DNA of 64,000 nt from assembly GCA_964406475.1 (NCBI GenBank), contig CAYORS010000001.1:35881-99880 (forward strand), read 5' to 3'. The translations under genes and the position numbers were made by a program. Shown here piece by piece: positions 21,144-43,627 of the stretch; the first letter of the stretch is position 1, and every line of letters starts with the position of its first letter. The notes under the pieces were generated by a model, which made no database searches, had not been told where the DNA came from, and worked only from the letters and a program-made list of their open reading frames with translations. This DNA is from an uncultured Candidatus Saccharibacteria bacterium. Lineage in GTDB: Bacteria; Patescibacteriota; Minisyncoccia; Phycocordibacterales; CAIRYW01.

Positions 21144-23855
21144 GTGAAAAAGAGTTTTTTCTCTAGACTCAATAGTTTTTTTGCAAAACAGAAAAAAGAA
21201 ACTTCTTTTCTTTTTGGTTTGACTTTGTTTGTTGTGTTGAGTGTAACCTTGATTTGTCCTAAAGTGACATTTGCAGCTGGTGAGAGTACAAGTAATTTTG
21301 AAATGATCAAATATATTTATACAGCGGTCTCCTCTCTTGCAACAGGAGCTACAAATGTCGTTAGTACAGTTTATGAAAGTTTATTTGGTCCAGTGATTAC
21401 AAGCATTGCTTACGTTATATTGGGAATACTTTCTTACATTGTAGATGCAATTGGTATTATTTTTAACATTGTCATTAGCATCACGGTTATCAATATGAGT
21501 AGTCTCATAAATAAGATTGATATTATAAAAGCCGGATGGCAAGCTATTCGTGATCTTACAAATATTATCTTTATTTTTATGCTGCTTTATCTCGCTATTG
21601 CCACAATCCTTCAGCTTGATGAGCACGGGGTCAAACACGGATTAAGTAGACTTATTATAGGTGCGACACTTATCAACTTCAGTCTCTTTTTTGTCAAAGT
21701 CCCTATTGATGTATCCAATATTCTTGCGATTCAAATTTATAATAAGGTAAATCCCCCAAGTGACTCTACATTTGTAGGAGCCCTTTCAGGAAGAAAAGGC
21801 CTTGGAGATGCCTTTTTTCAAATGTTTAGTCCACAAAAAGTATTTAAAGATCCTCGATTAAGTAATTTATCAAGTAATGCAGGTCCAACAGGTTCACTTA
21901 GTGGAGATGTGTTAAGAACAAATCCACTGACAACATTTGTGATGGGTATTATTATTTTTTTGATTATCATTTTTATTTTCCTTGCTGTTATTATTATTTT
22001 TATAAAAAGGTTTATTGTACTTATGTTGCTTATGATTTTTTCTCCACTTGCCTTTGCAGGTATGGCAGTCCCAAGCCATGACATAGAGCATCAAATCACA
22101 TCAAGGTTTTGGAATACTCTTTTTAAAGAAGCTTTTTATGCACCAGTATTTATGTTCCTTATGTATCTTGCACTCAAAATGGGAACAGCCCTCAATACAA
22201 ATGTAATAAGAGAAGTGGATGCATCTTCAGGTATCGACAGACTCGTAACACTTCCTTTAAGTAATGTGATTGGTTTTTCTGTTGTGATTGGAATGATGGT
22301 TTTTGCTCTTACCGTATCAGAATCAATGGGTGTTGCAGGTGCATCAAATGCAGTCAATGCTTTTGGAATGATGCGTTCTAAGGCTACAGGTTTTATTGCA
22401 AGTAATACCGCAGGACGACTCGCTCACACTTGGGTCAATAAGGGAAACGGTGCAAACTTTACCATGGCAGCAGCTGGACTAAAAAACAGCTCAGGCACTG
22501 CACAAGGCAAGCTTGCAAACTTCCTTTCACGCAGTTCGCTTGGACGTAGTGTAGCCAAACAAGTCGCTGGCACAGCCCAAAACATAGGCAAAAAAGATTT
22601 TGGAGGAGGATTTTCTTATGATCATAAAATACACGAACGAGAAGAGGAATTTAAAGCTGCGCTTGAAGAGGCCCATAATGATCCAAAAATGCTTGCCGAG
22701 CTTATGGGTAAAGCACTTGGTGATGGAAACAAAAGATCTACCAGTCTTAAAGCAGCACATAGAATGTTTCATCATATGTCACTTGAGGAGAAAGCAAACC
22801 TTCAACTCAACCTTGATGAAAAAATAAAAGAAGGAGAAAAAACTGACAAAGATGGAAAACCTGTCAAACCAAAAGCAGAAATTGATGCACTAAAAGCCGC
22901 ACGTGCAAACCTTTTTGGTGGGGGAGAAAAACACGAACACGGACGACTCACCGAAAACGAAAGTGTTGGTATTGTGCGTGAAATCGCTGAAGGAACAGAT
23001 TACCATGCTAAAAAGTTTAGAGCCGCCATTGAAAGTGGCGATGCTTCTAGTGTGGGGCACTTTATCGAGAATGCAACAGAAGGGCAAATGAAAGTAGCCC
23101 TCAGGTCCCTTGGTGATATGGAAAATCTAAAAATGAAACCAGTCACTGCTGATACACCAAAAGAAAAAATAAAAGAATACGAAATCCATAACCAAAAAGT
23201 CCAAAACATAACCAACCAGATCACCAACGGTCTCAGTAAGTTTAGAGGGGAGAGCTTCCACGCAATGGTAGCCAAAGATACTGCACAAAGTGAAACAATC
23301 AAAGAAGTTGCATCGACAGCTGTGTTAAAGGGACAAAAACGCTACCAGGCATTTCAGGCTTTTTCAGGTAGTAATGAAAAAATTAACAAGGCCCTTGCCC
23401 TTGGGAATCCCAACCTCCGCCAGGGTTTTGCTGATGAATTGAGAGATCTTCCTCAAATGCGAGATCATATACAAAAATACGACGAGAGACAAAAGAACAT
23501 CGAAAAGGGTCTCGAAGAAAAACTCAAAACCGCCAGAGGAGATGCTGCCAAAGAAGCGCATTTCAAAGCTGAAGCAGAAAAAGAAAAAATCAAAGCCTTT
23601 GAAGAAGACGTGGTACAAAAATATGATGAGACGATGTCAGAATCTACAACATTTAAGTACGCGAAAAGTCCGAACGGAGAAAGAACCGTCATACAAACAA
23701 AAGAAATGAAAGAAGAGCTTGGAAACCAAGAAAAAATATTTAAAACACTCGAAGAAGAAACAAAAAAACAAAAAGAGGCAGCAGGTGGGGGAAATTGGTC
23801 ACAAAAAAATCCAATATTATTTGACGCATACGGTCAACCAATAAACACAAAATAA
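21144..23855 (+). CDS. VirB6/TrbL/TcpH-like polytopic membrane protein (903 aa; hydrophobic ~400-aa N-half, charged K/E-rich C-half)
   Basis: About 8 predicted TM helices in the first 400 aa, then a hydrophilic coiled-coil-like tail. Architecture and T4SS context only; no direct motif proof. Confidence 0.5.
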   Translation: MKKSFFSRLNSFFAKQKKETSFLFGLTLFVVLSVTLICPKVTFAAGESTSNFEMIKYIYTAVSSLATGATNVVSTVYESLFGPVITSIAYVILGILSYIVDAIGIIFNIVISITVINMSSLINKIDIIKAGWQAIRDLTNIIFIFMLLYLAIATILQLDEHGVKHGLSRLIIGATLINFSLFFVKVPIDVSNILAIQIYNKVNPPSDSTFVGALSGRKGLGDAFFQMFSPQKVFKDPRLSNLSSNAGPTGSLSGDVLRTNPLTTFVMGIIIFLIIIFIFLAVIIIFIKRFIVLMLLMIFSPLAFAGMAVPSHDIEHQITSRFWNTLFKEAFYAPVFMFLMYLALKMGTALNTNVIREVDASSGIDRLVTLPLSNVIGFSVVIGMMVFALTVSESMGVAGASNAVNAFGMMRSKATGFIASNTAGRLAHTWVNKGNGANFTMAAAGLKNSSGTAQGKLANFLSRSSLGRSVAKQVAGTAQNIGKKDFGGGFSYDHKIHEREEEFKAALEEAHNDPKMLAELMGKALGDGNKRSTSLKAAHRMFHHMSLEEKANLQLNLDEKIKEGEKTDKDGKPVKPKAEIDALKAARANLFGGGEKHEHGRLTENESVGIVREIAEGTDYHAKKFRAAIESGDASSVGHFIENATEGQMKVALRSLGDMENLKMKPVTADTPKEKIKEYEIHNQKVQNITNQITNGLSKFRGESFHAMVAKDTAQSETIKEVASTAVLKGQKRYQAFQAFSGSNEKINKALALGNPNLRQGFADELRDLPQMRDHIQKYDERQKNIEKGLEEKLKTARGDAAKEAHFKAEAEKEKIKAFEEDVVQKYDETMSESTTFKYAKSPNGERTVIQTKEMKEELGNQEKIFKTLEEETKKQKEAAGGGNWSQKNPILFDAYGQPINTK

Positions 23856-23856
23856 A

Positions 23857-24711
23857 ATGTCAAAATATAGCAACGAACAATACGTATCAATATTCAACAA
23901 GCTTCCTCCTGATATTAAGGATGTGGTCTTGTCTTATGCAACAGTGGATGCGCTTTGGGCAATAGGTAAGAGACACAACCTCCAAATCGACCAAACAGGC
24001 AAAATGATCGATATTACTTTTGATGTTGTGATGGGTATTGTCGCAACAAAAGATTTTGTCAAAGAACTGACCAACGAGCTCCACATATCTGCACTTGATG
24101 CTTTGGCTATTTCGCGTGATGTAGATGACACAATACTCCAGCCTATCAAACAAACCATGATCAAAACCTTTGGTGATAGCGCCCCTTACAAACCGTCAAG
24201 CAGTCTCGTTCAAGTATATGAAGATGAAGACGATCATCCGTCACTTCAAAAAGAAACAATCTTAAAAGAAATCGAGGAACCAGAAGCTCCAATCATCAAA
24301 AAAGAAATCGTCTACACACAATCCCCAGTACAAGTGGCGCAAGAAAAACCAAAACAACCCGAATCTCCCACATCACAAAAGACAGATCCTCTCCCTAGTG
24401 TCTACAAAGAAGAAATACAAAGCCCACAAAAAGAATCTGCACCCATAAAAGTCCCGAGCTTCCTCGAAAAAATAACCTCTTTAAAACTCTCTCAAAGCAT
24501 TGTGATGCCAAAAGAAGAATCCAGTGTTCAAACTATCATAGAAAAGGCACCTTCTGTTCCCACAAGTATTACCACATACCCTCCCGAAATTAAAGAGACC
24601 GGCAAACCTGAACCACAAAAACAACCACAAGTACAAAAAGACGCTCCAGAAGAACCTTCAAAACAACAAACACCACAATACTCAGTCGATCCGTATCGCG
24701 AACAAATATAA
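23857..24711 (+). CDS. Hypothetical protein with a P/Q/E/K-rich low-complexity C-terminal half (T4SS cluster)
   Basis: Composition read from the translation. Confidence 0.45.
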   Translation: MSKYSNEQYVSIFNKLPPDIKDVVLSYATVDALWAIGKRHNLQIDQTGKMIDITFDVVMGIVATKDFVKELTNELHISALDALAISRDVDDTILQPIKQTMIKTFGDSAPYKPSSSLVQVYEDEDDHPSLQKETILKEIEEPEAPIIKKEIVYTQSPVQVAQEKPKQPESPTSQKTDPLPSVYKEEIQSPQKESAPIKVPSFLEKITSLKLSQSIVMPKEESSVQTIIEKAPSVPTSITTYPPEIKETGKPEPQKQPQVQKDAPEEPSKQQTPQYSVDPYREQI

Positions 24712-24743
24712 AATACACGCCACCACAACCTTGGTGGTGTGTT

Positions 24744-25277
24744 TTGAAAGATGTGTTTGTGATATACTGTGTATGTAGTTTTTTCTATATGCAATATCAA
24801 GTACCACAATTTATTGAAATCGAAGACAAAATTTTTGGACCACTGACATTCAAACAGTTCGTCTATGTGACTGGTGGAGCAGGAATGTGCTTTCTTGCAT
24901 ACAAGTTTATCCCTATGCCTTTTTCTTTTTTCCTCATTATTCCTATTGGAGGGTTTTCTTTTGCACTTGCGTTTTACAAAGTGAACAATCGACCATTTAT
25001 TGATGCTGTAGAATCTGCTGTAAAATTCTTTTTGAGTACAAAGCTTTATCTTTGGGAAAAAAGAGACAAACCAAAAACTCCAGAAGAAATTGCCGAGCTT
25101 CCTAAAGGTGCAATCTATGTTCCAAAACTTTCAGAATCCAAACTCAAAGAGCTTACCTGGAGTCTTGATGTGAACGAAAACATCGATCTTACCAACGAAA
25201 CACACACACCACAAAAACAAAGCATCCTCAAAAACCCAAACCAAATTAAACAAAGTCAACATAATTTTTTAGAATAA
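24744..25277 (+). CDS. Small two-TM protein, VirB3/PrgI-like candidate, upstream of VirB4
   Basis: Two hydrophobic helices (GAGMCFLAYKFIPMPFSFFLIIPIGGFSFALAFY), size and position typical of VirB3-like proteins. Confidence 0.4.
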   Translation: MKDVFVIYCVCSFFYMQYQVPQFIEIEDKIFGPLTFKQFVYVTGGAGMCFLAYKFIPMPFSFFLIIPIGGFSFALAFYKVNNRPFIDAVESAVKFFLSTKLYLWEKRDKPKTPEEIAELPKGAIYVPKLSESKLKELTWSLDVNENIDLTNETHTPQKQSILKNPNQIKQSQHNFLE

Positions 25278-25278
25278 T

Positions 25279-25926
25279 ATGGCTATACCAGGCAAAAGTT
25301 CACAAGATTTTATCCCTATCAAAGAAATACGAGATGGTGTTGTTATTTTAAAAGACGGAAGTCTTCGAGGGGTTGTTTTGACATCTTCGGTCAACTTCGC
25401 ACTCAAAAGTGCAGACGAACAGAACGCAATCATCTATCAATTTCAGAACTTTTTGAACTCTATCAATTTTTCTATTCAGATATTTAGCCAGTCACGACGT
25501 CTTGATATACGCCCTTATATCGCACTCCTCGAAAAGGTTCAAAAAGAACAAGAAATTGAGCTTTTAAGAGTTCAGACCAAAGAATATATTGAGTTTATCA
25601 AGACATTTACATCGAGTGTGAACATTATGAAGAAATCCTTCTTCATTGTAGTGTCTTACACACCAGCACTTCTTCAAAAGGGGACTGCGGGTGGATTCTT
25701 TTCTTTCTTTGGAGGAGGTAAAACTTCATCAAAAGAGAAAAACGATAATTTTGAAGAAAATCGCACACAACTTTTGCAAAGAATGGAGGTTGTAATGTCA
25801 GGTCTTACACGAATGGGGGTAAAAGCGGTTCCTCTTGGAACAGAGGAGCTGGTGGAGCTTTATTATAAATTGTTCAATCCAGGAGATACAGAAAAGCCTA
25901 TCAACATAGACAAAATTGGACAATAA
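25279..25926 (+). CDS. T4SS-associated soluble protein; candidate detached N-terminal domain of VirB4
   Basis: No TM. DFIPIKEIRDGVVILKDGSLRGVVL...resembles VirB4 N-terminal segments. 215 aa plus the downstream 606 aa gives ~820 aa, the canonical VirB4 length. The two ORFs are in different frames, 38 nt apart. Confidence 0.4.
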   Translation: MAIPGKSSQDFIPIKEIRDGVVILKDGSLRGVVLTSSVNFALKSADEQNAIIYQFQNFLNSINFSIQIFSQSRRLDIRPYIALLEKVQKEQEIELLRVQTKEYIEFIKTFTSSVNIMKKSFFIVVSYTPALLQKGTAGGFFSFFGGGKTSSKEKNDNFEENRTQLLQRMEVVMSGLTRMGVKAVPLGTEELVELYYKLFNPGDTEKPINIDKIGQ

Positions 25927-25964
25927 ATTATCGTTTCGAAACAAATTAGATTATAATATTTACA

Positions 25965-27785
25965 ATGGGAATACTTGATTCAATCTTAGGCAGAAGCAAA
26001 AATACCGATACACAAGCGGTAACAGCTATTTTGCCACAAGAAATTTATGAAAGTGGAGTTTTGGAACTCAAAGACGTGATTGCACCAAGTGCTTTGAAGG
26101 TATCTCCTCGAGAACTCAACCTTGGCGACAAGATCGCGCGAACTTTTTTTGTGATTTCTTATCCTCGTTTTCTTACTGAAAGCTGGTTTGCGCAAATCAT
26201 TAACCTTGATCGGATTTTTGATATTTCGATTTTTATTCACCCTATGGATACAGCACAGGTTCTTCGCCAATTCCAAAAAAAGGTTGCTGAAGTACAAAGC
26301 CAAATCGCAAATAGAGAGGAGAGGGGGCTTGTACGTGATCCTGTACTCGACACTGCATATCAGGACCTTGAACAGCTTCGTGACCAACTCCAACAAGCAC
26401 AAGAAAGAATATTCGAAGTCGGACTTTATATTACAATCTACGGTAGTACTATTGAAGAACTCGATAAAGTAGAGTCAGAAGTTAAATCCATCCTTGAAGC
26501 AAAGCTTGTATATGTGAAGCCTGCACTTTTCCAACAAGAACAAGGGTTCCGTAGTGTTTTGCCTATTGGTAATGATGAGCTCGAGGTCCATTCTAAACTC
26601 AACTCAAGTCCTCTGTCGAGTATCTTTCCTTTCATTTCTTTTGACCTTACATCTGACAAAGGGATTCTTTATGGTGTAAACAGACACAACTCTTCACTTG
26701 TACTTTTTGATCGTTTCTCACTCGAAAACTACAATTCCGTCACATTCGCAAAAGCCGGAGCAGGAAAAAGTTTTGCCACAAAACTAGAGATCCTTCGATC
26801 ACTTATGTTTGATACTGATGTGATTGTTATTGACCCTGAAAGAGAATATGAATATCTCGCAGAAGCAACAGGGGGGCGATATTTTAATATTTCTCTTACA
26901 TCAGAACACCACATAAACCCTTTTGATCTTCCAACACCGCGAGAAGACGAATCAGCAGGAGATGTGCTTCGTTCAAACATCATTAACCTCGTAGGACTCT
27001 TTCGTCTTATGCTTGGAGGACTCACTCCAGAAGAAGATGCTATTGTTGATCAAGCAATCACAGAAACATACGCCCTCAAAGACATTACTGCGGATGCGGA
27101 TTTTACCAACGCAGAACCTCCTTTGTTGTCTGACTTTGAGCTTGTGCTGTCTGGTATGACAGGAGCAGAATCTCTTGTTCAAAGACTCGAAAAGTATACA
27201 AAAGGAACGTGGGCAGGATTTATCAACCGACCATCAAACGTTGATATCAATAAAAAATTCGTTACCTTTTCTCTTCGAGATATGGAAGACGAGCTCAAAC
27301 CTGTGGCAATGTATATTGTGATGCACTATATCTGGAATGCTATTCGTGAGAAGCTCAAAAAAAGACTTCTTGTGATTGATGAGGCATGGTGGATGATGAA
27401 ATCAGAAGACACAGCATCATTCCTTCTTGGTCTTGCAAAACGAGGAAGAAAATACTATCTCGGACTTGCAACAATTACTCAGGACGTTGAGGACTTCCTC
27501 AAATCACCTTATGGAACACCGATTATTACCAACTCATCAATCCAGATGCTTCTCAAACAATCTCCATCATCTGTCGATATGCTCCAAAAAACTTTCAACC
27601 TTACTGATGAAGAAAAATATCTTTTGCTCGAATCTGAAGTGGGAGAGGGAATTTTCTTTGCGGGATTAAAACACGTTGCGATAAAAATCATAGCCTCATA
27701 TACCGAAGAACAAATCATCACCTCAAACCCATCTCAGGTTCTTGCCATTCGTGCAGCAAAGAAAGCACAAGAAGAGCAAATATAA
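25965..27785 (+). CDS. virB4: VirB4/TrbE/CagE-family T4SS ATPase
   Basis: Walker A FAKAGAGKSF, Walker B LLVIDEAWWMM, ISYPR...SWFAQII N-terminal pattern of the VirB4 family. Confidence 0.8.
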   Translation: MGILDSILGRSKNTDTQAVTAILPQEIYESGVLELKDVIAPSALKVSPRELNLGDKIARTFFVISYPRFLTESWFAQIINLDRIFDISIFIHPMDTAQVLRQFQKKVAEVQSQIANREERGLVRDPVLDTAYQDLEQLRDQLQQAQERIFEVGLYITIYGSTIEELDKVESEVKSILEAKLVYVKPALFQQEQGFRSVLPIGNDELEVHSKLNSSPLSSIFPFISFDLTSDKGILYGVNRHNSSLVLFDRFSLENYNSVTFAKAGAGKSFATKLEILRSLMFDTDVIVIDPEREYEYLAEATGGRYFNISLTSEHHINPFDLPTPREDESAGDVLRSNIINLVGLFRLMLGGLTPEEDAIVDQAITETYALKDITADADFTNAEPPLLSDFELVLSGMTGAESLVQRLEKYTKGTWAGFINRPSNVDINKKFVTFSLRDMEDELKPVAMYIVMHYIWNAIREKLKKRLLVIDEAWWMMKSEDTASFLLGLAKRGRKYYLGLATITQDVEDFLKSPYGTPIITNSSIQMLLKQSPSSVDMLQKTFNLTDEEKYLLLESEVGEGIFFAGLKHVAIKIIASYTEEQIITSNPSQVLAIRAAKKAQEEQI

Positions 27786-27789
27786 ACAT

Positions 27790-28476
27790 ATGAAAATAAT
27801 AAGTTTTATTCTTGATATTCTTCCTTTTTTAGGAGGAATAAAAATGATGATTGAAGCAGGGTTCAAAAAGGACCTTGTAGGTAACGAACTAAATGGCAAA
27901 CTACGTAAAATCCATTTTTTTATTGGACTTATTACACTTATCTTTGATTGTTTCACGCTCGAAGGAGGTGGTATCACACGAGGTCTTATAAAGCTTTTGG
28001 GAGAAGGATTTTTGAAACGACTCGCCGAGACAGGAGCAGAAAAAGCTGCCGAAAAAACTTTGGCCAAAAAAGTATTGCAAGGTACTGTGCGCACAATTGA
28101 AAAAGCTGAAGAAAGTAGGGTGGGTAAGTATGTGGTAAAAAAAGCCGAAGATAAAATTAGAGACAAGGTAAAAGAAGCTGTCACTGATGTAGAAGATTAT
28201 CGGCGTAATCCCGAAAAAAGAAAAGAGCTCCAAGAAAAATACGGACAAACAGAAAGAGATAAAAAAGAAATCCGCCGAAGAGTTATTGAACTACAAAAAC
28301 ACCACAAAAAAGTAGAAGAAGAAAATAAGGAAGAAGTGAGTAACACAGATCTCGACTATATAAGACAAGCTGTGGAGACAAAAGCAACAAATTCTATTTT
28401 TAATAGACCGCGAATTCTTCAACAAAAAAAATCTGTGCGTGATACAATAATAGAAAGACAAAAAAAGTCAAAGTAA
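27790..28476 (+). CDS. Hypothetical N-terminally anchored K/E-rich coiled-coil protein (T4SS cluster)
   Basis: TM then charged repeats. Start moved to the Met after the virB4 stop. Confidence 0.45.
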   Translation: MKIISFILDILPFLGGIKMMIEAGFKKDLVGNELNGKLRKIHFFIGLITLIFDCFTLEGGGITRGLIKLLGEGFLKRLAETGAEKAAEKTLAKKVLQGTVRTIEKAEESRVGKYVVKKAEDKIRDKVKEAVTDVEDYRRNPEKRKELQEKYGQTERDKKEIRRRVIELQKHHKKVEEENKEEVSNTDLDYIRQAVETKATNSIFNRPRILQQKKSVRDTIIERQKKSK

Positions 28477-29531
28477 TGTCATATCTACAGTCACAAAAAA
28501 ACATACTCTTTCTAGGATTTTTGGTTTTTGCTTGTGGCTGCATATTCTCACATCAACAAGTTTTTGGTGCAACAGACACCCTTCCTATACCGACAGAAAT
28601 AGACGATCTCGAAGAGCAAGTAAGCACACGAATAACTCCAAAATACCCTCGCCCTGGAGAAGATGTGACAATTACTCTTGAGGCATACGGCACAGATCTT
28701 AATGCAGCAAACATTATATGGTCAGTAAACGACATAATATTCAAACAAGGAAAAGGTGAAAAGCAGTTTAAAATAAATGCCGGCACATCAGGACAACAAA
28801 CCAATGTGTCTGTTACAATCGAACCTCGAAACGGCAAACCTATTATCAAAAATTTTGTTATCAACCCGCAAACTGTTGATATTTTGTGGGAAGCAGATAC
28901 CTATACACCACCATTTTATAAAGGCAAATCAATGTTTACACCTGAAGATACGATTACCTTTGTAGCAATGCCAAACATAAATAATGAACAACCTGATCCA
29001 AAAACACTTTCATACAAATGGATAGAAAACCAAGAAGTCCAAGGAAGCAAATCTGGTTATGGGCAAAACACCTTCAAGCACACAGGAGGCATTCTTATGA
29101 AACCCGTCGAAATAAATGTGGAAGCCTCAACAGAAGGGGGACAAAAAGCTTTTAATACTATTTTTCTTCGATCTATATTCCCTGAGGTCAATCTCTATGA
29201 AGACCATCCGTTATATGGTTTCTTGTTTAATAAAGAAATAAGCGGTGTTTTTCCTTTTGGCGAAAGAGAGGAGGGTACAATTGCGGCGTTTCCGTTTTTT
29301 TTGAGTACATTAAACAGAATAACAAAAAGCATTGTTTACAATTGGACTGTCAATTATAATAAAGTCATAGGTCAGAGCAACAAAAACGAACTCACCCTTC
29401 GTAATACAGAAAATACAGAAGGAAAGTCTTATGTATCTGTTGAAGTGAGAAATAGTGATATTTTTCTACAGAAAGGTGAAACAAACACATATGTTGACTT
29501 CAAGAAAATCAAAAAAATAATAGGTCTCTAA
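28476..29531 (+). CDS. Secreted hypothetical protein (signal peptide)
   Basis: MSYLQSQKNILFLGFLVFACGCIFSHQQVFGA signal-like N-terminus. Confidence 0.5.
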   Translation: MSYLQSQKNILFLGFLVFACGCIFSHQQVFGATDTLPIPTEIDDLEEQVSTRITPKYPRPGEDVTITLEAYGTDLNAANIIWSVNDIIFKQGKGEKQFKINAGTSGQQTNVSVTIEPRNGKPIIKNFVINPQTVDILWEADTYTPPFYKGKSMFTPEDTITFVAMPNINNEQPDPKTLSYKWIENQEVQGSKSGYGQNTFKHTGGILMKPVEINVEASTEGGQKAFNTIFLRSIFPEVNLYEDHPLYGFLFNKEISGVFPFGEREEGTIAAFPFFLSTLNRITKSIVYNWTVNYNKVIGQSNKNELTLRNTENTEGKSYVSVEVRNSDIFLQKGETNTYVDFKKIKKIIGL

Positions 29532-29532
29532 A

Positions 29533-30396
29533 ATGAAAAAATTTTTAATTTTATTTTTTATAACATACAGTGTTGTCATAATCCCCTATTTTTCTTTTGG
29601 AGATAATGGAAAGTACACACCTCTCGCTCCAATACCAGGACTTTCAGATAATGTCGCCCCTATTGATACAGAAAACGGACTCAGTATTTATGTCAACCAG
29701 CTTTATACGTGGGGTGTTGCGCTCGCATCAGGCCTTGCTGTTATGATGATTATTTGGGGAGGAGTGGGATATGTCACAAGCGCAGGAGGTGGAGGAATAG
29801 AAGAAGCTAAAGGCCGTATAAATGCAGCTATTTTAGGACTTCTTCTTGCTCTTGGGTCATATCTTATACTCAAAACAATAAACCCGGAGCTTTTGAAAAC
29901 AACATTTGACTTGGCGACAATCACAGTAAATACCACAACTCAAAATGGTAATGGAGGTAACGGTGGTTTTGGTGGTACAAACCCCACAACAGGAACCATA
30001 ACTGGTGATTATGCATTTCTAAATCAAGTAAACAATGATCCAAACGGAGACCAAATACTTTTTACTGCCTATGGATATGCAGGGGACACCTCTTATGATC
30101 AAAATAGTGCGGAAGGAAGAGGAAACAATGATAATCAATTGACCGAAGGTTCTGTTGCACTTTCTCCTGATCTTATTTCAAAACTGAACCCTTCACCTGG
30201 TGCATCTGTTTTTGTAAACGGTGTGCACGTTGGATATTACGATGATAGCACTTCTCCAGATCTCACAAACCGTGTTGACTTTTATAATCCATCAGGAAGT
30301 TTGGGGGGGAATAATTTTTCAAAACCAGTAACAGGAACAGTCACAGTTGACAACAGTAGCGTCCGACCCCAAAAACCCAACCCTTCAAAGAAATAA
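29533..30396 (+). CDS. VirB2/TrbC-like conjugative pilin candidate with a long G/N/T-rich C-terminal extension
   Basis: Signal peptide, then two hydrophobic helices (GVALASGLAVMMIIWGGVGYV... and AAILGLLLALGSYLILKTINPEL) in pilin-like arrangement. Then ~170 aa of low-complexity NGNGGNGGFGGT... sequence. Confidence 0.5.
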   Translation: MKKFLILFFITYSVVIIPYFSFGDNGKYTPLAPIPGLSDNVAPIDTENGLSIYVNQLYTWGVALASGLAVMMIIWGGVGYVTSAGGGGIEEAKGRINAAILGLLLALGSYLILKTINPELLKTTFDLATITVNTTTQNGNGGNGGFGGTNPTTGTITGDYAFLNQVNNDPNGDQILFTAYGYAGDTSYDQNSAEGRGNNDNQLTEGSVALSPDLISKLNPSPGASVFVNGVHVGYYDDSTSPDLTNRVDFYNPSGSLGGNNFSKPVTGTVTVDNSSVRPQKPNPSKK

Positions 30397-33517: not shown

Positions 33518-33652
33518 ACTTTGTAATATATCATTGTGTGTGTTTTTTGACAAGAAGGGGACTATTTTTTGAGTTTTCCACATCTTATCAACACACTTAT
33601 TCAATGTTTTCTAGTTTTCCTGTTTTTGTGTGGTTGTATAATATACCTACTT
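33518..33652. promoter_or_regulatory. oriC-proximal rpmH-dnaA intergenic region with DnaA-box variants and the dnaA promoter
   Basis: TTTTCCACA at 33574-33582 and TTATCAACA at 33585-33593. TATAAT at 33637-33642, about 10 nt upstream of the dnaA ATG. Confidence 0.5.
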
Positions 33653-35008
33653 ATGGAAAACAAGGACATATTGTGGAGTAGAGTTCTTTCGGATATGGAA
33701 ATATCCCTCTCAAAAGCAAATTTTGTGATGTGGTTTAAGGATACTTTTATAGTCAAAATCGATGATGGAGTTGTGTATATTGGTGTTCCCAGCGCTTTTA
33801 TAAAAGAGTGGTTCGCAAATAAATACCATAAAATGATCTTTAAGTCTCTTCGAGACACATCGGAACATATAAAAGGAATTGAATACGTTATTGTAAAATC
33901 AGAAAACAGAAAAGATATTGAAGAGAATGAGCGAAAAAAGAAGGTTAATTCTTTTGTGGGAGAACAAGAACTTCCTCTTGCAGACCTCTATATAAACAAA
34001 GATGATAATCTAAACCCCCGTTATACCTTTGAAAGTTTTGTAATTGGACCTTTCAACGAACTTGCTCATGCAGCAGCCCAGGCAATCATTAAAAAACCAG
34101 CATCGTATAACCCCCTCTTTTTTTATGGAGATACAGGGAGAGGAAAGACTCACCTTATACAAGCAATTGGTAACGAACTTAAGAAAAATGATTCGTCAAA
34201 AAGGGTTTATTATATTACATCAGACAAGTTCTATCAGGAGTTTGCAAGCTCAATGCAAGACGGAAAACTCACATCTTTTAAGGATAAATACAAAAAATAC
34301 GATGTTTTTATTATGGATGATATACAGTTTTTGTCAAAAAAAGAAAAAACACAAGAAGAACTCTTCCATCTTTTTAACTACCTAAATGACAATAACAAAC
34401 AAATAATCTTTTCTTCAGACCAGCACCCTAACTACATAAATGATTTGGAAGATCGCCTTAAATCAAGATTTGTATCTGGAATGATTGTTGATATTCCGGC
34501 ACCAGACTATGAATCTCGTGCTGCTATTATTAAAAATAAAACAAAAACAAAAGGTGTTGATCTTAATCCTGTAATAATCGACTACCTAGCAGGGAATGTA
34601 GAGACAAACATCCGAGAACTTGAGGGGATTGTTAATAATATAACATGCCAAATGGAACTTCGAGGAAGAGATTTGGACCTTGCTGAAATAAAACACCTTA
34701 TCAAAGACAGCTCAAAACCAACAAAATCTGTTTCTGTGAAAGATGTTTTGCGAGCAATTTCACAGTTTTATGACATTGAAGAAGCAGCAATAACAGACAA
34801 AACACGAAAAAAAGAAGTGGTGAAACCTCGGCAAGTTGCAATGTTTATTTTAAGAGAAGACTATAACATATCATACCCATCAATCGGTCAAAAAATGGGA
34901 GGAAGAGATCATACAACAGTTATGCATTCGTGTGAAAAAATAAAAAACGACCTCAAAGACAACAACCAACTTTCCCAGGAATTAAGTCAGATACGAGCAA
35001 TGTTATAA
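33653..35008 (+). CDS. dnaA: Chromosomal replication initiator DnaA
   Basis: AAA+ Walker A GDTGRGKTHL and C-terminal DNA-binding helix-turn-helix. Start set at MENKD (33653). Confidence 0.9.
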   Translation: MENKDILWSRVLSDMEISLSKANFVMWFKDTFIVKIDDGVVYIGVPSAFIKEWFANKYHKMIFKSLRDTSEHIKGIEYVIVKSENRKDIEENERKKKVNSFVGEQELPLADLYINKDDNLNPRYTFESFVIGPFNELAHAAAQAIIKKPASYNPLFFYGDTGRGKTHLIQAIGNELKKNDSSKRVYYITSDKFYQEFASSMQDGKLTSFKDKYKKYDVFIMDDIQFLSKKEKTQEELFHLFNYLNDNNKQIIFSSDQHPNYINDLEDRLKSRFVSGMIVDIPAPDYESRAAIIKNKTKTKGVDLNPVIIDYLAGNVETNIRELEGIVNNITCQMELRGRDLDLAEIKHLIKDSSKPTKSVSVKDVLRAISQFYDIEEAAITDKTRKKEVVKPRQVAMFILREDYNISYPSIGQKMGGRDHTTVMHSCEKIKNDLKDNNQLSQELSQIRAML

Positions 35009-35209: not shown

Positions 35210-36310
35210 ATGAAAATAGAAATAATAAAAGACAAACTCCTTGCAGCTATCACTCAAGCAGAACGTATTGCGGGAAAACACATATCACTACCTATTCTCT
35301 CTTGCGTCATAATTGAAGCAAGGGAGGGTGTTGTTAGTGTGAAGGCAACAAACCTCGATGTTGGTATAGAAATCTCTGTGGTGGCCAAAATTTTTGAAGA
35401 TGGAGTGGTTGCTCTCCAAGGTTCACTTCTTAAATCTTTTGTCTCGAGCTTAGGTAACAATAAATCCGTTTTGTTTGAAGTTAAGGAGGGTGCTTGTATT
35501 ATTTCTTCTGGATCAAGTGAGGCTTCTTTCAGAATTACTTCACCAGATGATTTTCCTGTGATACCAAGGGTTTCTGGTGACAATCCTCTTGTGATACCTT
35601 CAAAAGATTTTGTTCTAGGGCTTAGGTCTGTTGTGTGGAGTGCTGCTGTTTCATCAATCAAACCCGAGCTTTCAAGTGTTTATATTTATGAAGACGATTC
35701 GTTTCTTGTTTTTGTGGCAACAGACTCTTTCCGTCTTGCAGAGAAGAGGGTTAAAACAAAAAACATTAAAAATTTGGAACCCCTCCTTATTCCATTCAAA
35801 AACAGTCTTGAGATTGTAAGGGTTTTTGAAGATTTTGACGGTGATTTAAAAATTTTTGTTTCAAAAAACCAGCTTTCGATTTTAACAGAAAACATTCACT
35901 TGTCTTCTCGGGTGGTTGATGGTAATTTTCCTGATTACAGACAGATTATTCCAAAAGAATACGAGACAGAAGCAAATATTTTGAAGTCAGATTTTGTTTC
36001 AGCAATTAAAATTTCGGGTATTTTTGCAAATAACTTCAACCAACTCCTTCTTTCTTTTGATACTGCTAATAAAAAAATCGATCTTCTTGCAAAAAATAAT
36101 GATATTGGAGAGGGTAAACAATCCCTCAAGGCTGTTTTAAAAGGTAAAGACGTTTCTATGTCTTTCAATCACAAGTTTATCCTTGATTGTCTCCATATTA
36201 TTGAAGATGAGAATATTGTTTTAAAAATGGCTGGTGTTGGAAAGCCTATGATTATAGCCCCTGCTCATAACCCATCGTTTGTTTACTTGGTAATGTCGAT
36301 GAACAAATAA
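35210..36310 (+). CDS. dnaN: DNA polymerase III beta sliding clamp
   Basis: 366 aa with three-domain clamp pattern. Position after dnaA. Confidence 0.9.
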   Translation: MKIEIIKDKLLAAITQAERIAGKHISLPILSCVIIEAREGVVSVKATNLDVGIEISVVAKIFEDGVVALQGSLLKSFVSSLGNNKSVLFEVKEGACIISSGSSEASFRITSPDDFPVIPRVSGDNPLVIPSKDFVLGLRSVVWSAAVSSIKPELSSVYIYEDDSFLVFVATDSFRLAEKRVKTKNIKNLEPLLIPFKNSLEIVRVFEDFDGDLKIFVSKNQLSILTENIHLSSRVVDGNFPDYRQIIPKEYETEANILKSDFVSAIKISGIFANNFNQLLLSFDTANKKIDLLAKNNDIGEGKQSLKAVLKGKDVSMSFNHKFILDCLHIIEDENIVLKMAGVGKPMIIAPAHNPSFVYLVMSMNK

Positions 36311-41841: not shown

Positions 41842-43545
41842 TTAGCTCACAAATTCTTCAGATTCTGGGGTTATATCAACCACACGTTCGAGTTCTTCTA
41901 TTGTACTTATACCATTGAGAACTTGTTTTATTCCGTCTTCTGCAAGGTTTAGAATATGTTGATGTTCTGCCGCTTTTGCTATTTCACGATCACTTGGGTT
42001 TTCATACACGATTTGTGCTATGGCATGGTCAATGATGATTGCTTCATACAAAGCAACTCGTCCTTTGTATCCTGTGTGGTTACAAAGATCACACCCTTCT
42101 TCTTTGGCTACAAAAACTTCTTGGTCTTGGAGTACATCTTCTCCTTTTGCACGAATGTGTGCAAGGTGGTATGACAAGGCTGCTTTTTTGCCTTCAGGGA
42201 TAGACGCCTTGGTTGCACATGCGGTGCATACTTTTCTGATAAGTCGCTGCGCAATAGAAACACTGAGGCCCGATGTGATGATTTTTGGATTAATACCAAG
42301 ATCAATAAGACGAGTAAATGCACCCGCTGCATTATTGGTGTGAAGGGTTGAAAATACAAGGTGTCCTGTGAGGGATGCGTGCATTGCGATCTCTGCTGTT
42401 TCTGCATCTCGGATCTCACCCACAAGGATAACGTCTGGGTCTTGTCGAAGTGTCGAACGAAGTCCTGATGCGAATGTATAACCTTTTTCTGATTCTACTT
42501 GTGTTTGGACAATCCCATTAAGGTGATACTCGATAGGGTCTTCAATTGTGATGACTTTAACACCAGGTTCGTATACCTTTTTAAGAAAGGCATAGAGTGT
42601 TGTGGTCTTTCCACTTCCTGTTGGTCCTGTTGTGAGAATGAGTCCACTTGGTTTTGCCATTTGATCAGCAAAAATTTTCATAAGTTTTGGAGGAATACCA
42701 AGTTCTTCAAACGGGGTTGCAATAGAATCTGGATTCAAAATTCTCATTACCACTGATTCTCCGTATGCACCTGGAAGAATAGATGTACGGATTTCGATTT
42801 CTTTGCCTTCGATTTTTACACTAAAACGACCATCCTGAGCGTTCTGTTTGATATTCAATTTGAGATTTGAAAGCAGCTTGAGTCGTGATAGTACAAGTCC
42901 GTATGTTTCGTTATCAAAATTGATAATATCCACAAGCACGCCATCAAGACGATAACGAAGTCGCGTAATTGTTTCTTCTGGTTCAATGTGAATATCAGAT
43001 GCTTTGAGGGCAATAGCACCCGCCATCATAATGCCGATGATTTTTGATATACGATAGACACGCTTTACGGCGATTGTGTCATCGACAAGATTTTGAATAT
43101 CGGGAATGTTTTTTACTTTTCCGATGAGATCTTGTATTTCATCACTCGAAATATCTAAAGATCCGGCCTTTGTTGCCATTGCAAAAGACAGATCTTTGTA
43201 GCGTCCCCACGCCTTTTCGAGGCTTGCAAGAGACACCATATAGACATTCACTTTGTAATTTTTTTCTTCGAGCTCTTTTACTACTTGCTTTACTTCATCT
43301 ATTTGAGGTGTTTGAACTGCAAGAGAAAGTATTTTGCCCACCATTTTAAAAAGAGCAACACGTGCTGCACGTGCTTTGTCCTCTGGAATGAGACGGAGAG
43401 CGTCAGTGTTTATAGTAATACCAGAGAGGTCTGCATACTCTACTCCGTATTTGTGCGAGAGTACCTTGGCAAGATCCTCCTCCTCTTTTTTGCGAAGAGA
43501 TTCAAGTTGTTGGTTTTGTTTGTCTTCGTTGAATTGTACTGTCAT
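41842..43545 (-). CDS. pilB: Type IV pilus / type II secretion assembly ATPase (PilB/GspE family)
   Basis: Walker A TTGPTGSGKTTTL, Asp box, His box and tetracysteine motif. Start set at the internal Met (MTVQFNEDK). Confidence 0.8.
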   Translation of the reverse strand: MTVQFNEDKQNQQLESLRKKEEEDLAKVLSHKYGVEYADLSGITINTDALRLIPEDKARAARVALFKMVGKILSLAVQTPQIDEVKQVVKELEEKNYKVNVYMVSLASLEKAWGRYKDLSFAMATKAGSLDISSDEIQDLIGKVKNIPDIQNLVDDTIAVKRVYRISKIIGIMMAGAIALKASDIHIEPEETITRLRYRLDGVLVDIINFDNETYGLVLSRLKLLSNLKLNIKQNAQDGRFSVKIEGKEIEIRTSILPGAYGESVVMRILNPDSIATPFEELGIPPKLMKIFADQMAKPSGLILTTGPTGSGKTTTLYAFLKKVYEPGVKVITIEDPIEYHLNGIVQTQVESEKGYTFASGLRSTLRQDPDVILVGEIRDAETAEIAMHASLTGHLVFSTLHTNNAAGAFTRLIDLGINPKIITSGLSVSIAQRLIRKVCTACATKASIPEGKKAALSYHLAHIRAKGEDVLQDQEVFVAKEEGCDLCNHTGYKGRVALYEAIIIDHAIAQIVYENPSDREIAKAAEHQHILNLAEDGIKQVLNGISTIEELERVVDITPESEEFVS

Positions 43546-43627
43546 AGGTATAGTATAAATGACAAAACAAAAAGTAGAAAGAGTGCACATTCTTTGCACT
43601 TTATTGTTTTTGTCTTATACTTCGCCT

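Follow-up and report, generated by a model that had tools for sequence, protein, structure and literature searches.

A probable natural two-gene VirB4 in a chromosomal type IV secretion cluster of an uncultured patescibacterium

A 64,000-nucleotide (nt) stretch of DNA from an uncultured Candidatus Saccharibacteria bacterium (assembly GCA_964406475.1, contig CAYORS010000001.1, positions 35,881 to 99,880 of the forward strand; hereafter the window) contains two adjacent open reading frames (ORFs) that each resemble a different part of VirB4, the ATPase of type IV secretion systems (T4SSs). We interpret ORF1, of 215 amino acids (aa), and ORF2, of 606 aa, as a natural and evolutionarily stable two-gene VirB4 in the chromosomal T4SS cluster of a Paceibacteria-type patescibacterium, whose products together rebuild VirB4, and we put the probability of this interpretation at roughly 85%. 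Its grounds are the homology and complementary coverage of the two parts, the way they line up with fused relatives, their conservation, and the purifying selection acting on them. The pairing of a TrsD-like gene with virB4 is already known in Patescibacteria, because it was reported by Quinonero-Coronel et al. (2025, Microb Genom, PMC12102498), and the small gene already carries names in the literature and in databases, namely TrsD/TraD-like and Pfam PF26593 'TraC-like'.

Complementary coverage of VirB4 by two genes

ORF1 (25279..25926, + strand) and ORF2 (25965..27785, + strand) both start with ATG and are separated by an intergenic gap of 38 nt (25927..25964, assigned to no strand), as read directly from the sequence. 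These coordinates agree with a preliminary description of the locus, made from the sequence alone, in which VirB4 was seen as two ORFs of 215 and 606 aa lying 38 nt apart in different frames. The same description equated the combined ~820 aa with the length of a canonical VirB4, and the actual sum, 821 aa, falls within the range of the full-length profiles (752–894 positions) and near the fused relatives described below (775–807 aa).

Both ORFs were compared with hidden Markov models (HMMs) of the VirB4 families, as the preliminary description had proposed. Among the NCBIfam profiles, ORF1 matched VirB4_plasma, the model for VirB4 of mycoplasma integrative and conjugative elements, with an E-value of 1e-11 (positions 103–234 of 894), the CD1110-family VirB4 profile NF045971 with an E-value of 8e-7 (positions 2–120 of 752), and TIGR00929 with an E-value of 1.7e-5 (positions 7–178 of 792). 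The suspected resemblance of the 215-aa product to VirB4 N-termini is thus beyond chance. ORF1 also matched the TrsD/TraD profile NF041427 (E 5.5e-6, positions 15–143 of 201); with 26.3 bits against a curated cutoff of 200, it is a distant TrsD/TraD relative that lies outside NCBIfam-level membership. PF26593 is precomputed for P0001, a protein identical to ORF1, and for all 120 of its listed homologues. Our own Pfam scan of ORF1 gave sub-threshold matches only and no PF26593, a family that the copy of Pfam used perhaps did not contain. No transmembrane (TM)-like segment was found in ORF1 (maximum Kyte-Doolittle 19-residue score 1.16), in line with the preliminary description, and its product is predicted to be soluble. 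A sequence search of ORF1 against Protein Data Bank (PDB) chains returned nothing meaningful, and VirB4 was found there by fold search only. When the AlphaFold2 (AF2) model of ORF1 (predicted local distance difference test, pLDDT, 70) was searched with Foldseek, all 13 of the 13 best PDB matches were TrwK/VirB4 chains, with probabilities up to 0.99, query-normalised template-modelling scores (TM-scores) of 0.32–0.45, and E-values of 5e-3 to 0.1.

ORF2 matched the CD1110-family profile over positions 181–732 of 752 (E 1.8e-114), and its 383.7 bits exceed the cutoff of 325. It also aligned to positions 292–893 of VirB4_plasma and to positions 264–724 of TIGR00929, the latter with 124 bits against a cutoff of 643; for all VirB4 equivalogs other than the CD1110 family it stayed under the cutoff. 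Its Pfam matches were P-loop_TraG (E 1.8e-25), AAA_10, and DUF87. ORF2 residues 231–587 align to the C-terminal domain of Thermoanaerobacter VirB4 (PDB 4AG5, E 4e-41), and residues 117–553 align to residues 290–735 of TrwK. Both Walker motifs are intact. Walker A, the P-loop (AKAGAGKS, residues 262–269; 26748..26771, + strand), is read from the ORF2 translation and pairs with GKAGSGKS of the fused relative P0348 and AKPGAGKS of 4AG5, while Walker B (LLVIDE, followed by AW; residues 468–473; 27366..27383, + strand), located by a pattern search of the translation, pairs with VLVVDEAW of 4AG5. With the family threshold passed and a RecA-like domain that carries both motifs, ORF2 is assigned by its sequence to the VirB4-family T4SS ATPases. 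It has no TM-like segment (maximum Kyte-Doolittle 19-residue score 1.34), and its listed homologues are all 600–651 aa long.

ORF2 opens with an N-terminal tail (residues 1–27), continues from residue 28 to ~230 with a second part of the N-terminal domain of VirB4, and has its ATPase domain at residues 231–587. The middle portion corresponds to CD1110 positions from 181 onward, to TraC_F_IV positions 299–373, and to TrwK residues from 290 onward. ORF2 alone does not hold the complete N-terminal domain, given that its profile match begins at CD1110 position 181 of 752. Positions 2–120 are found in ORF1, which extends to ~180 by alignment to the fused relatives, and positions 181–732 are found in ORF2. 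Because this coverage is complementary and non-overlapping, ORF1 represents the detached first part of VirB4 and ORF2 the remainder, a VirB4 minus its first ~180 profile positions. For the same reason, what we found differs from the outcome named beforehand as speaking against a divided VirB4, in which the small ORF would show no similarity to VirB4 N-termini and ORF2 would cover the full profile. The labels 'N-terminal-domain ORF' and 'ATPase ORF' given in the preliminary description stand in part: ORF1 is N-terminal and ORF2 contains the ATPase, but ORF1 is not the whole domain, whose second part is in ORF2 residues 28 to ~230. The alignments place the break inside the N-terminal domain, about 180 profile positions in and within a linker, rather than between the N-terminal domain and the ATPase.

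A possible origin of ORF1 as an internal repeat of the ORF2 N-terminal region was also considered, prompted by a similar order of secondary structure and a weak BLAST match (62 aa, E 0.33). This idea was dropped at the sequence level, as a profile-profile comparison of 113 TrsD-like with 58 ORF2 N-terminal sequences gave a probability of only 0.2% (E 0.32).

Conservation of the split and its fused relatives

Orthologous loci were sampled from one genome per species (GTDB representatives), which yielded 80 loci, 79 of them with both genes. In 78 of these 79 loci, the ORF1 homologue forms an intact ORF by itself, 208–233 aa long and closed by its own stop codon, and the ORF2 homologue begins at its own ATG. 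The gene order, PrgI-like, ORF1-like, ORF2-like, was likewise kept in 78/79. The gap between the two genes ranges from −4 to 486 nt, with a median of 5, and is at most 9 nt in 53/79 loci. The second gene lies in relative frame 0, 1, or 2 in 16, 36, and 27 loci, respectively, and the ORF1 homologue ends in TAA, TAG, or TGA. With the split recurring in 78/79 loci while gap, frame, and stop codon vary, the pattern cannot stem from a frameshift common to all, from faulty sequencing, or from a recoding signal. In L044, the single exception, a lone TAG in frame at codon 31 (GGMR*VILASS, about 5338..5340) interrupts an otherwise intact ORF1 homologue; its probable cause is an error in sequencing or a nonsense mutation of recent origin. 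At the other end of the range, the TrsD-like gene and virB4 of three loci (L002, L030, and L041) are ~450 nt apart, with gaps of 442–486 nt.

Both genes are under purifying selection. Measured against the three closest relatives, the ratio of non-synonymous to synonymous change per site (pN/pS) was 0.16–0.24 for ORF1 and 0.09–0.13 for ORF2, with synonymous sites saturated. An alignment of 45 sequences of ORF1 homologues, which measure 207–233 aa, has 62 invariant columns, and these include the nearly invariant C-terminal motif LGTEELVELYYKLFNPG..EKP.

ORF1 homologues number in the thousands in a search of 5.8 billion proteins. All 120 that were listed are 193–233 aa long, with identity down to 62%, and come from Patescibacteria/Paceibacterota assemblies; in Joint Genome Institute (JGI) annotation the name 'type IV secretory pathway VirB4 component' is given to several, whereas several NCBI records call such homologues 'hypothetical protein'. 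Taking both genes together, database homologues with these two lengths run into the thousands. An exhaustive HMMER search with ORF1 against 1.84 billion cluster representatives found 2,331 related clusters. Among the best 150 of these, most were 200–250 aa, some had long low-complexity tails, and two were full-length proteins. Three of the stand-alone TrsD-like proteins (P0285, P0277, and P0389) carry Pro/Gln/Ala-rich low-complexity extensions of 150–250 aa at the C- or N-terminus.

Natural fusions of the two parts are also present. P0348 (797 aa), which has three members of identical length from Candidatus Colwellbacteria assemblies, matches ORF1 with its residues 7–215 (44% identity) and ORF2 residues 30–595 with its residues 225–791 (57% identity). 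A single stretch of P0348, residues 17–750, aligns to TIGR00929 positions 18–725. Its CD1110 match (residues 173–762) crosses the junction, as does that of Pfam TraC_F_IV (residues 169–394), and its N-terminus also matches TrsD/TraD NF041427. The AF2 model of P0348 (pLDDT 74.9) could be aligned over its whole length to the full-length TrwK/VirB4 of R388 (E 3e-28 over 818 columns), with a low global TM-score of 0.39. Model confidence falls to 62–64 at residues 211–230, where the window has a stop, a gap, and a start.

A search with P0348 identified at least 115 clusters of 775–807 aa, with identity down to 59%, in which PF26593 and the ATPase domains lie in one chain. Across this fused clade (P0348 and P0393–P0511, from Candidatus Colwellbacteria and relatives), the linker measures 10–12 residues. 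In P0352 (898 aa), a fusion of a second kind, the linker is Pro-rich and ~100 aa long. The lineage has toggled between split and fused forms at least twice, counting the Colwellbacteria short-linker fusion and that of P0352. Short members of 600 aa within the fused clade, among them P0411 and P0507, had the look of independent fissions. P0411 was rejected as a scaffold-gap artifact, since 100 N lie inside the gene on L085; it serves as an example of how a genuine assembly artifact looks.

Alternative explanations

The best-surviving alternative, which we nevertheless consider improbable, is that ORF1 is an independent accessory protein derived from the VirB4 N-terminus, such as a regulator, an assembly chaperone, or a competitor, and that ORF2 is a self-sufficient, shortened VirB4. 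In its favour, TrsD, described as restricted to the pGO1 subclass of MPF_FATA, has been given no assigned function, and the Gracilibacteria TrsD homologues are not adjacent to virB4 (PMC12102498). Some TrsD-like proteins reach 300–480 aa through long low-complexity tails, the clostridial homologue begins with a TM helix for which ORF1 has no counterpart, and ORF1 evolves about twice as fast as ORF2. An accessory role would not account well for the finding that the profile positions missing from ORF2 are exactly those present in ORF1, or for natural collinear fusions, joined by a short linker, whose matches to profiles and structures of full-length VirB4 run across the junction. The genes also keep their order and stay adjacent almost without exception, most gaps are 9 nt or less, and the C-terminal motif of ORF1 has hardly changed.

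Several of these observations, together with others, weigh against a two-gene VirB4. The Gracilibacteria non-adjacency and the low-complexity tails make it possible that the role of the small protein is not strictly 1:1 with VirB4. The score of ORF1 is far under the curated TrsD/TraD cutoff (26 vs 200 bits), and the match of its predicted fold to TrwK is modest (TM-scores 0.42–0.45), though in line with the sequence evidence. Finally, translational coupling is not evident, because no recognisable ribosome-binding site is present in the 38-nt gap of the window; none is clear for any gene in these loci. Upstream of virB4, no recognisable Shine-Dalgarno sequence precedes any of the starts (79/79), and the 25 nt before them are A/T-rich, often reading ...ataatATG. 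The absence of Shine-Dalgarno sequences suggests that initiation in this lineage is independent of them.

Next to a natural split, the preliminary description had offered a frameshift pseudogene or a sequencing error as readings of the same two ORFs. A frameshift or a sequencing or assembly error in a normally single ~800-aa virB4 could be suspected from the 38 nt and the change of frame between the ORFs, from the fused VirB4 genes of a related clade, and from the ability of artifacts to mimic short forms, as P0411 does with 100 N in its gene. We give this explanation almost no credence. The two-gene structure is found in 78 of 79 other species with differing gaps and frames, homology is not carried on in another frame past the junction, and both ORFs remain under purifying selection. 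A stop follows the conserved motif at the C-terminus of ORF1, and ORF2 has its own ATG, from which a conserved N-terminal peptide is read. Over 2,038 bp across the junction, the window and an independent Logan assembly of run SRR6837583 do not differ. A natural split, favoured by the complementary profiles, its recurrence in relatives, and purifying selection, is the reading that we retain.

Programmed recoding, in which a ribosomal frameshift or stop read-through would produce a single fused VirB4, is just as implausible: ARAGORN reports a tRNA with anticodon tta, a reader of UAA, at 48757..48832, and the ORF1 stop just before the gap is TAA, but read-through of this codon would meet a further in-frame TAA and then a TAG, at least one of them inside the gap, ORF2 is in a different frame, the variation of frame (0, 1, 2), gap (to 486 nt), and stop codon among relatives leaves no conserved recoding signal, and the tRNA is more naturally read as tRNA-Lys(UUU). 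Concerning this tRNA itself (− strand), which ARAGORN labels 'tRNA-Stop' (tta), the canonical register gives a 7-nt loop CTTTTAA with anticodon TTT (tRNA-Lys) and a G.A mismatch at the base of the anticodon stem. A UAA suppressor tRNA is unlikely because conserved genes here usually end in TAA.

Known systems, gene neighbourhood and proposed assembly

TrsD is the most abundant T4SS component in Patescibacteria, with 2,272 homologues, of which 1,664 are associated with VirB4, that is, next to virB4, and it has been described as remotely homologous to the N-terminal portion of VirB4 (PMC12102498). The essential T4SS of Southlakia epibionticum ML1 was described by Wang et al. (2023, Cell, PMC10633639), and the TrsD homologue of this organism is on the list of essential genes (PMC12102498); the patescibacterial T4SS is essential for epibiotic growth in the sole system tested (PMC10633639, PMC12102498). 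The word 'split' is not used in PMC12102498, and 'TrsD' is absent from the main text of Guglielmini et al. 2014 (PMC4027160), which that paper cites for the TrsD-VirB4 homology. Among the matches listed by a full-text literature search for TrsD and VirB4, only PMC12102498 concerns Patescibacteria. The window shares with the published pairs its phylum and a chromosomal cluster near dnaA with PrgI/VirB3-like, TrsD-like, and VirB4 genes and a candidate pilin-like gene. There is no difference in kind, and the window is one more instance. Beyond the main text of that paper, the present analysis adds the complementary profile coverage, a breakpoint common to Firmicutes plasmids, and the fused Colwellbacteria clade.

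TrsD/TrsE of staphylococcal pGO1/pSK41 and TraD/TraE of pIP501 likewise consist of a ~200-aa protein and a VirB4-like ATPase whose gene follows directly in the conjugation operon of a monoderm. These systems (NF041427; MPF_FATA, pGO1 subclass), to which the window is likened through the NF041427 profile, differ in being plasmid-borne conjugation machines with a relaxase and a coupling protein. Proteins resembling ORF1 also turned up on large plasmids of Firmicutes when plasmids were searched with tblastn. Clostridium perfringens pJFP838A, Clostridium botulinum pCBG, and Paenibacillus polymyxa pSC2 carry a PrgI-family gene, a small-protein gene, and an ATPase gene in the same order as the window. 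The small proteins, of 257–332 aa, are annotated as 'hypothetical' or 'TraC family', and the ATPases, of 620–641 aa, as 'DUF87' or 'ATP-binding'. The breakpoint on pCBG is the same: its small protein covers CD1110 positions 15–175 and its ATPase starts at 187, compared with 2–120 for ORF1 and 181 onward for ORF2. The plasmid proteins differ from those of the window in having only 22–27% identity to them and in their longer small proteins, and the pCBG small protein is the one with the N-terminal TM helix. The triplets are preceded by a gene for a sigma-70 family factor, and on pJFP838A and pSC2 also by clpX. The three plasmid loci (L082–L084) are on large plasmids that are mostly 'non-mobilizable'. 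Single-chain VirB4 proteins (CD1110 family NF045971; TrwK of R388, PDB 7O41 and 8RTD; the fused Colwellbacteria VirB4) have the same domains in the same order, but in one polypeptide, whereas the window has a stop, 38 nt, and a new start where P0348 has its 10–12-residue linker.

At the locus, prgI, ORF1, and ORF2 follow one another on the + strand, with the prgI stop codon 1 nt ahead of the ORF1 start. The prgI product, a PrgI family (VirB3-like) membrane protein of 177 aa (24744..25277), matched Pfam PF12666 with an E-value of 5.8e-9 and 36.8 bits, above the cutoff of 27, and has a TM-like hairpin at residues 48–80. Further upstream in the same gene string lies a polytopic membrane protein of 903 aa (21144..23855, + strand) with at least six TM-like segments and zero Pfam or NCBIfam matches. 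Its position, read with the account of such clusters in PMC12102498, makes it a candidate VirB6-like channel component. Downstream, a 287-aa protein (29533..30396, + strand) contains a weak T4SS-pilin-like segment (PF18895 T4SS_pilin, E 3e-4, 21.3 bits, under the cutoff of 26.6). The T4SS gene string is closely followed by dnaA (33569..35008) and dnaN (35210..36310), which start ~5.8 kb past ORF2, and housekeeping genes surround the cluster; patescibacterial T4SS clusters are reported to be located near dnaA and the replication origin (PMC12102498). Of the scanned ORFs, a subset of those in the window, none showed a domain of a relaxase or a coupling protein (T4CP). Elsewhere in the window are genes for a PilB/T2SSE-type ATPase (41842..43599, − strand; PF00437, E 4.5e-117), as would fit the type IV pili that such bacteria are reported to have, and for a protein of the Fic/DOC family (53486..54634, − strand).

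We propose that prgI, ORF1, and ORF2 are co-transcribed from one transcript and that their products associate physically in trans, as the complementarity of the two parts and the fused relatives would lead one to expect. A scan of 24500..28600 for promoters and terminators found no terminator-like hairpin in the gap 25927..25964 and no excess of promoter-like sites over chance. In the proposed assembly, ORF1 would dock non-covalently onto the N-terminal region of ORF2, and probably also onto the membrane-anchored PrgI/VirB3-like protein. Docking would restore a complete VirB4 N-terminal domain, and an ORF2 hexamer would supply ATP hydrolysis. Cryo-electron microscopy work on R388 (entries 7O41 and 8RTD) reportedly places the VirB4 N-terminal domain at the channel base, where it holds VirB3 and the tails of VirB8.

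ORF2 homologues share a short conserved motif, [LIF][LIF]x[SKT][ILF]LG[KR], at their very N-terminal end (consensus MSFLDKLLGKKK; residues 3–10 in the window, 25971..25994). It recurs in a disordered loop of ORF1 homologues (for example VLSSFLGKK and LFSFFGGSK; residues ~138–147 in the window, ~25690..25719), and BLAST pairs ILDSILGRSKNTDT of ORF2 with LLDRVLGGKKNKET in a loop of the fused P0352. This motif could be a docking or membrane-binding peptide. A more speculative suggestion, which we hold only tentatively and think rather unlikely, is that the break is functional rather than neutral. The TrsD-like module could then have a dosage or recruitment of its own, serving for instance as a checkpoint in assembly that links PrgI/VirB3 to the ATPase, or permitting a stoichiometry other than 1:1, with the motif acting as the docking or membrane element that enables assembly in trans.

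These results are a modest refinement of published knowledge and not a discovery. For annotation, they mean that it would be wrong to mark such a pair as a pseudogene or as a fault of assembly, and that the 215-aa gene is better described as a TrsD-like N-terminal module of VirB4 than as a 'hypothetical protein'. Natural fused variants offer ready-made controls. Viewing TrsD and the short VirB4 as the halves of one VirB4 would give TrsD a concrete and testable role.

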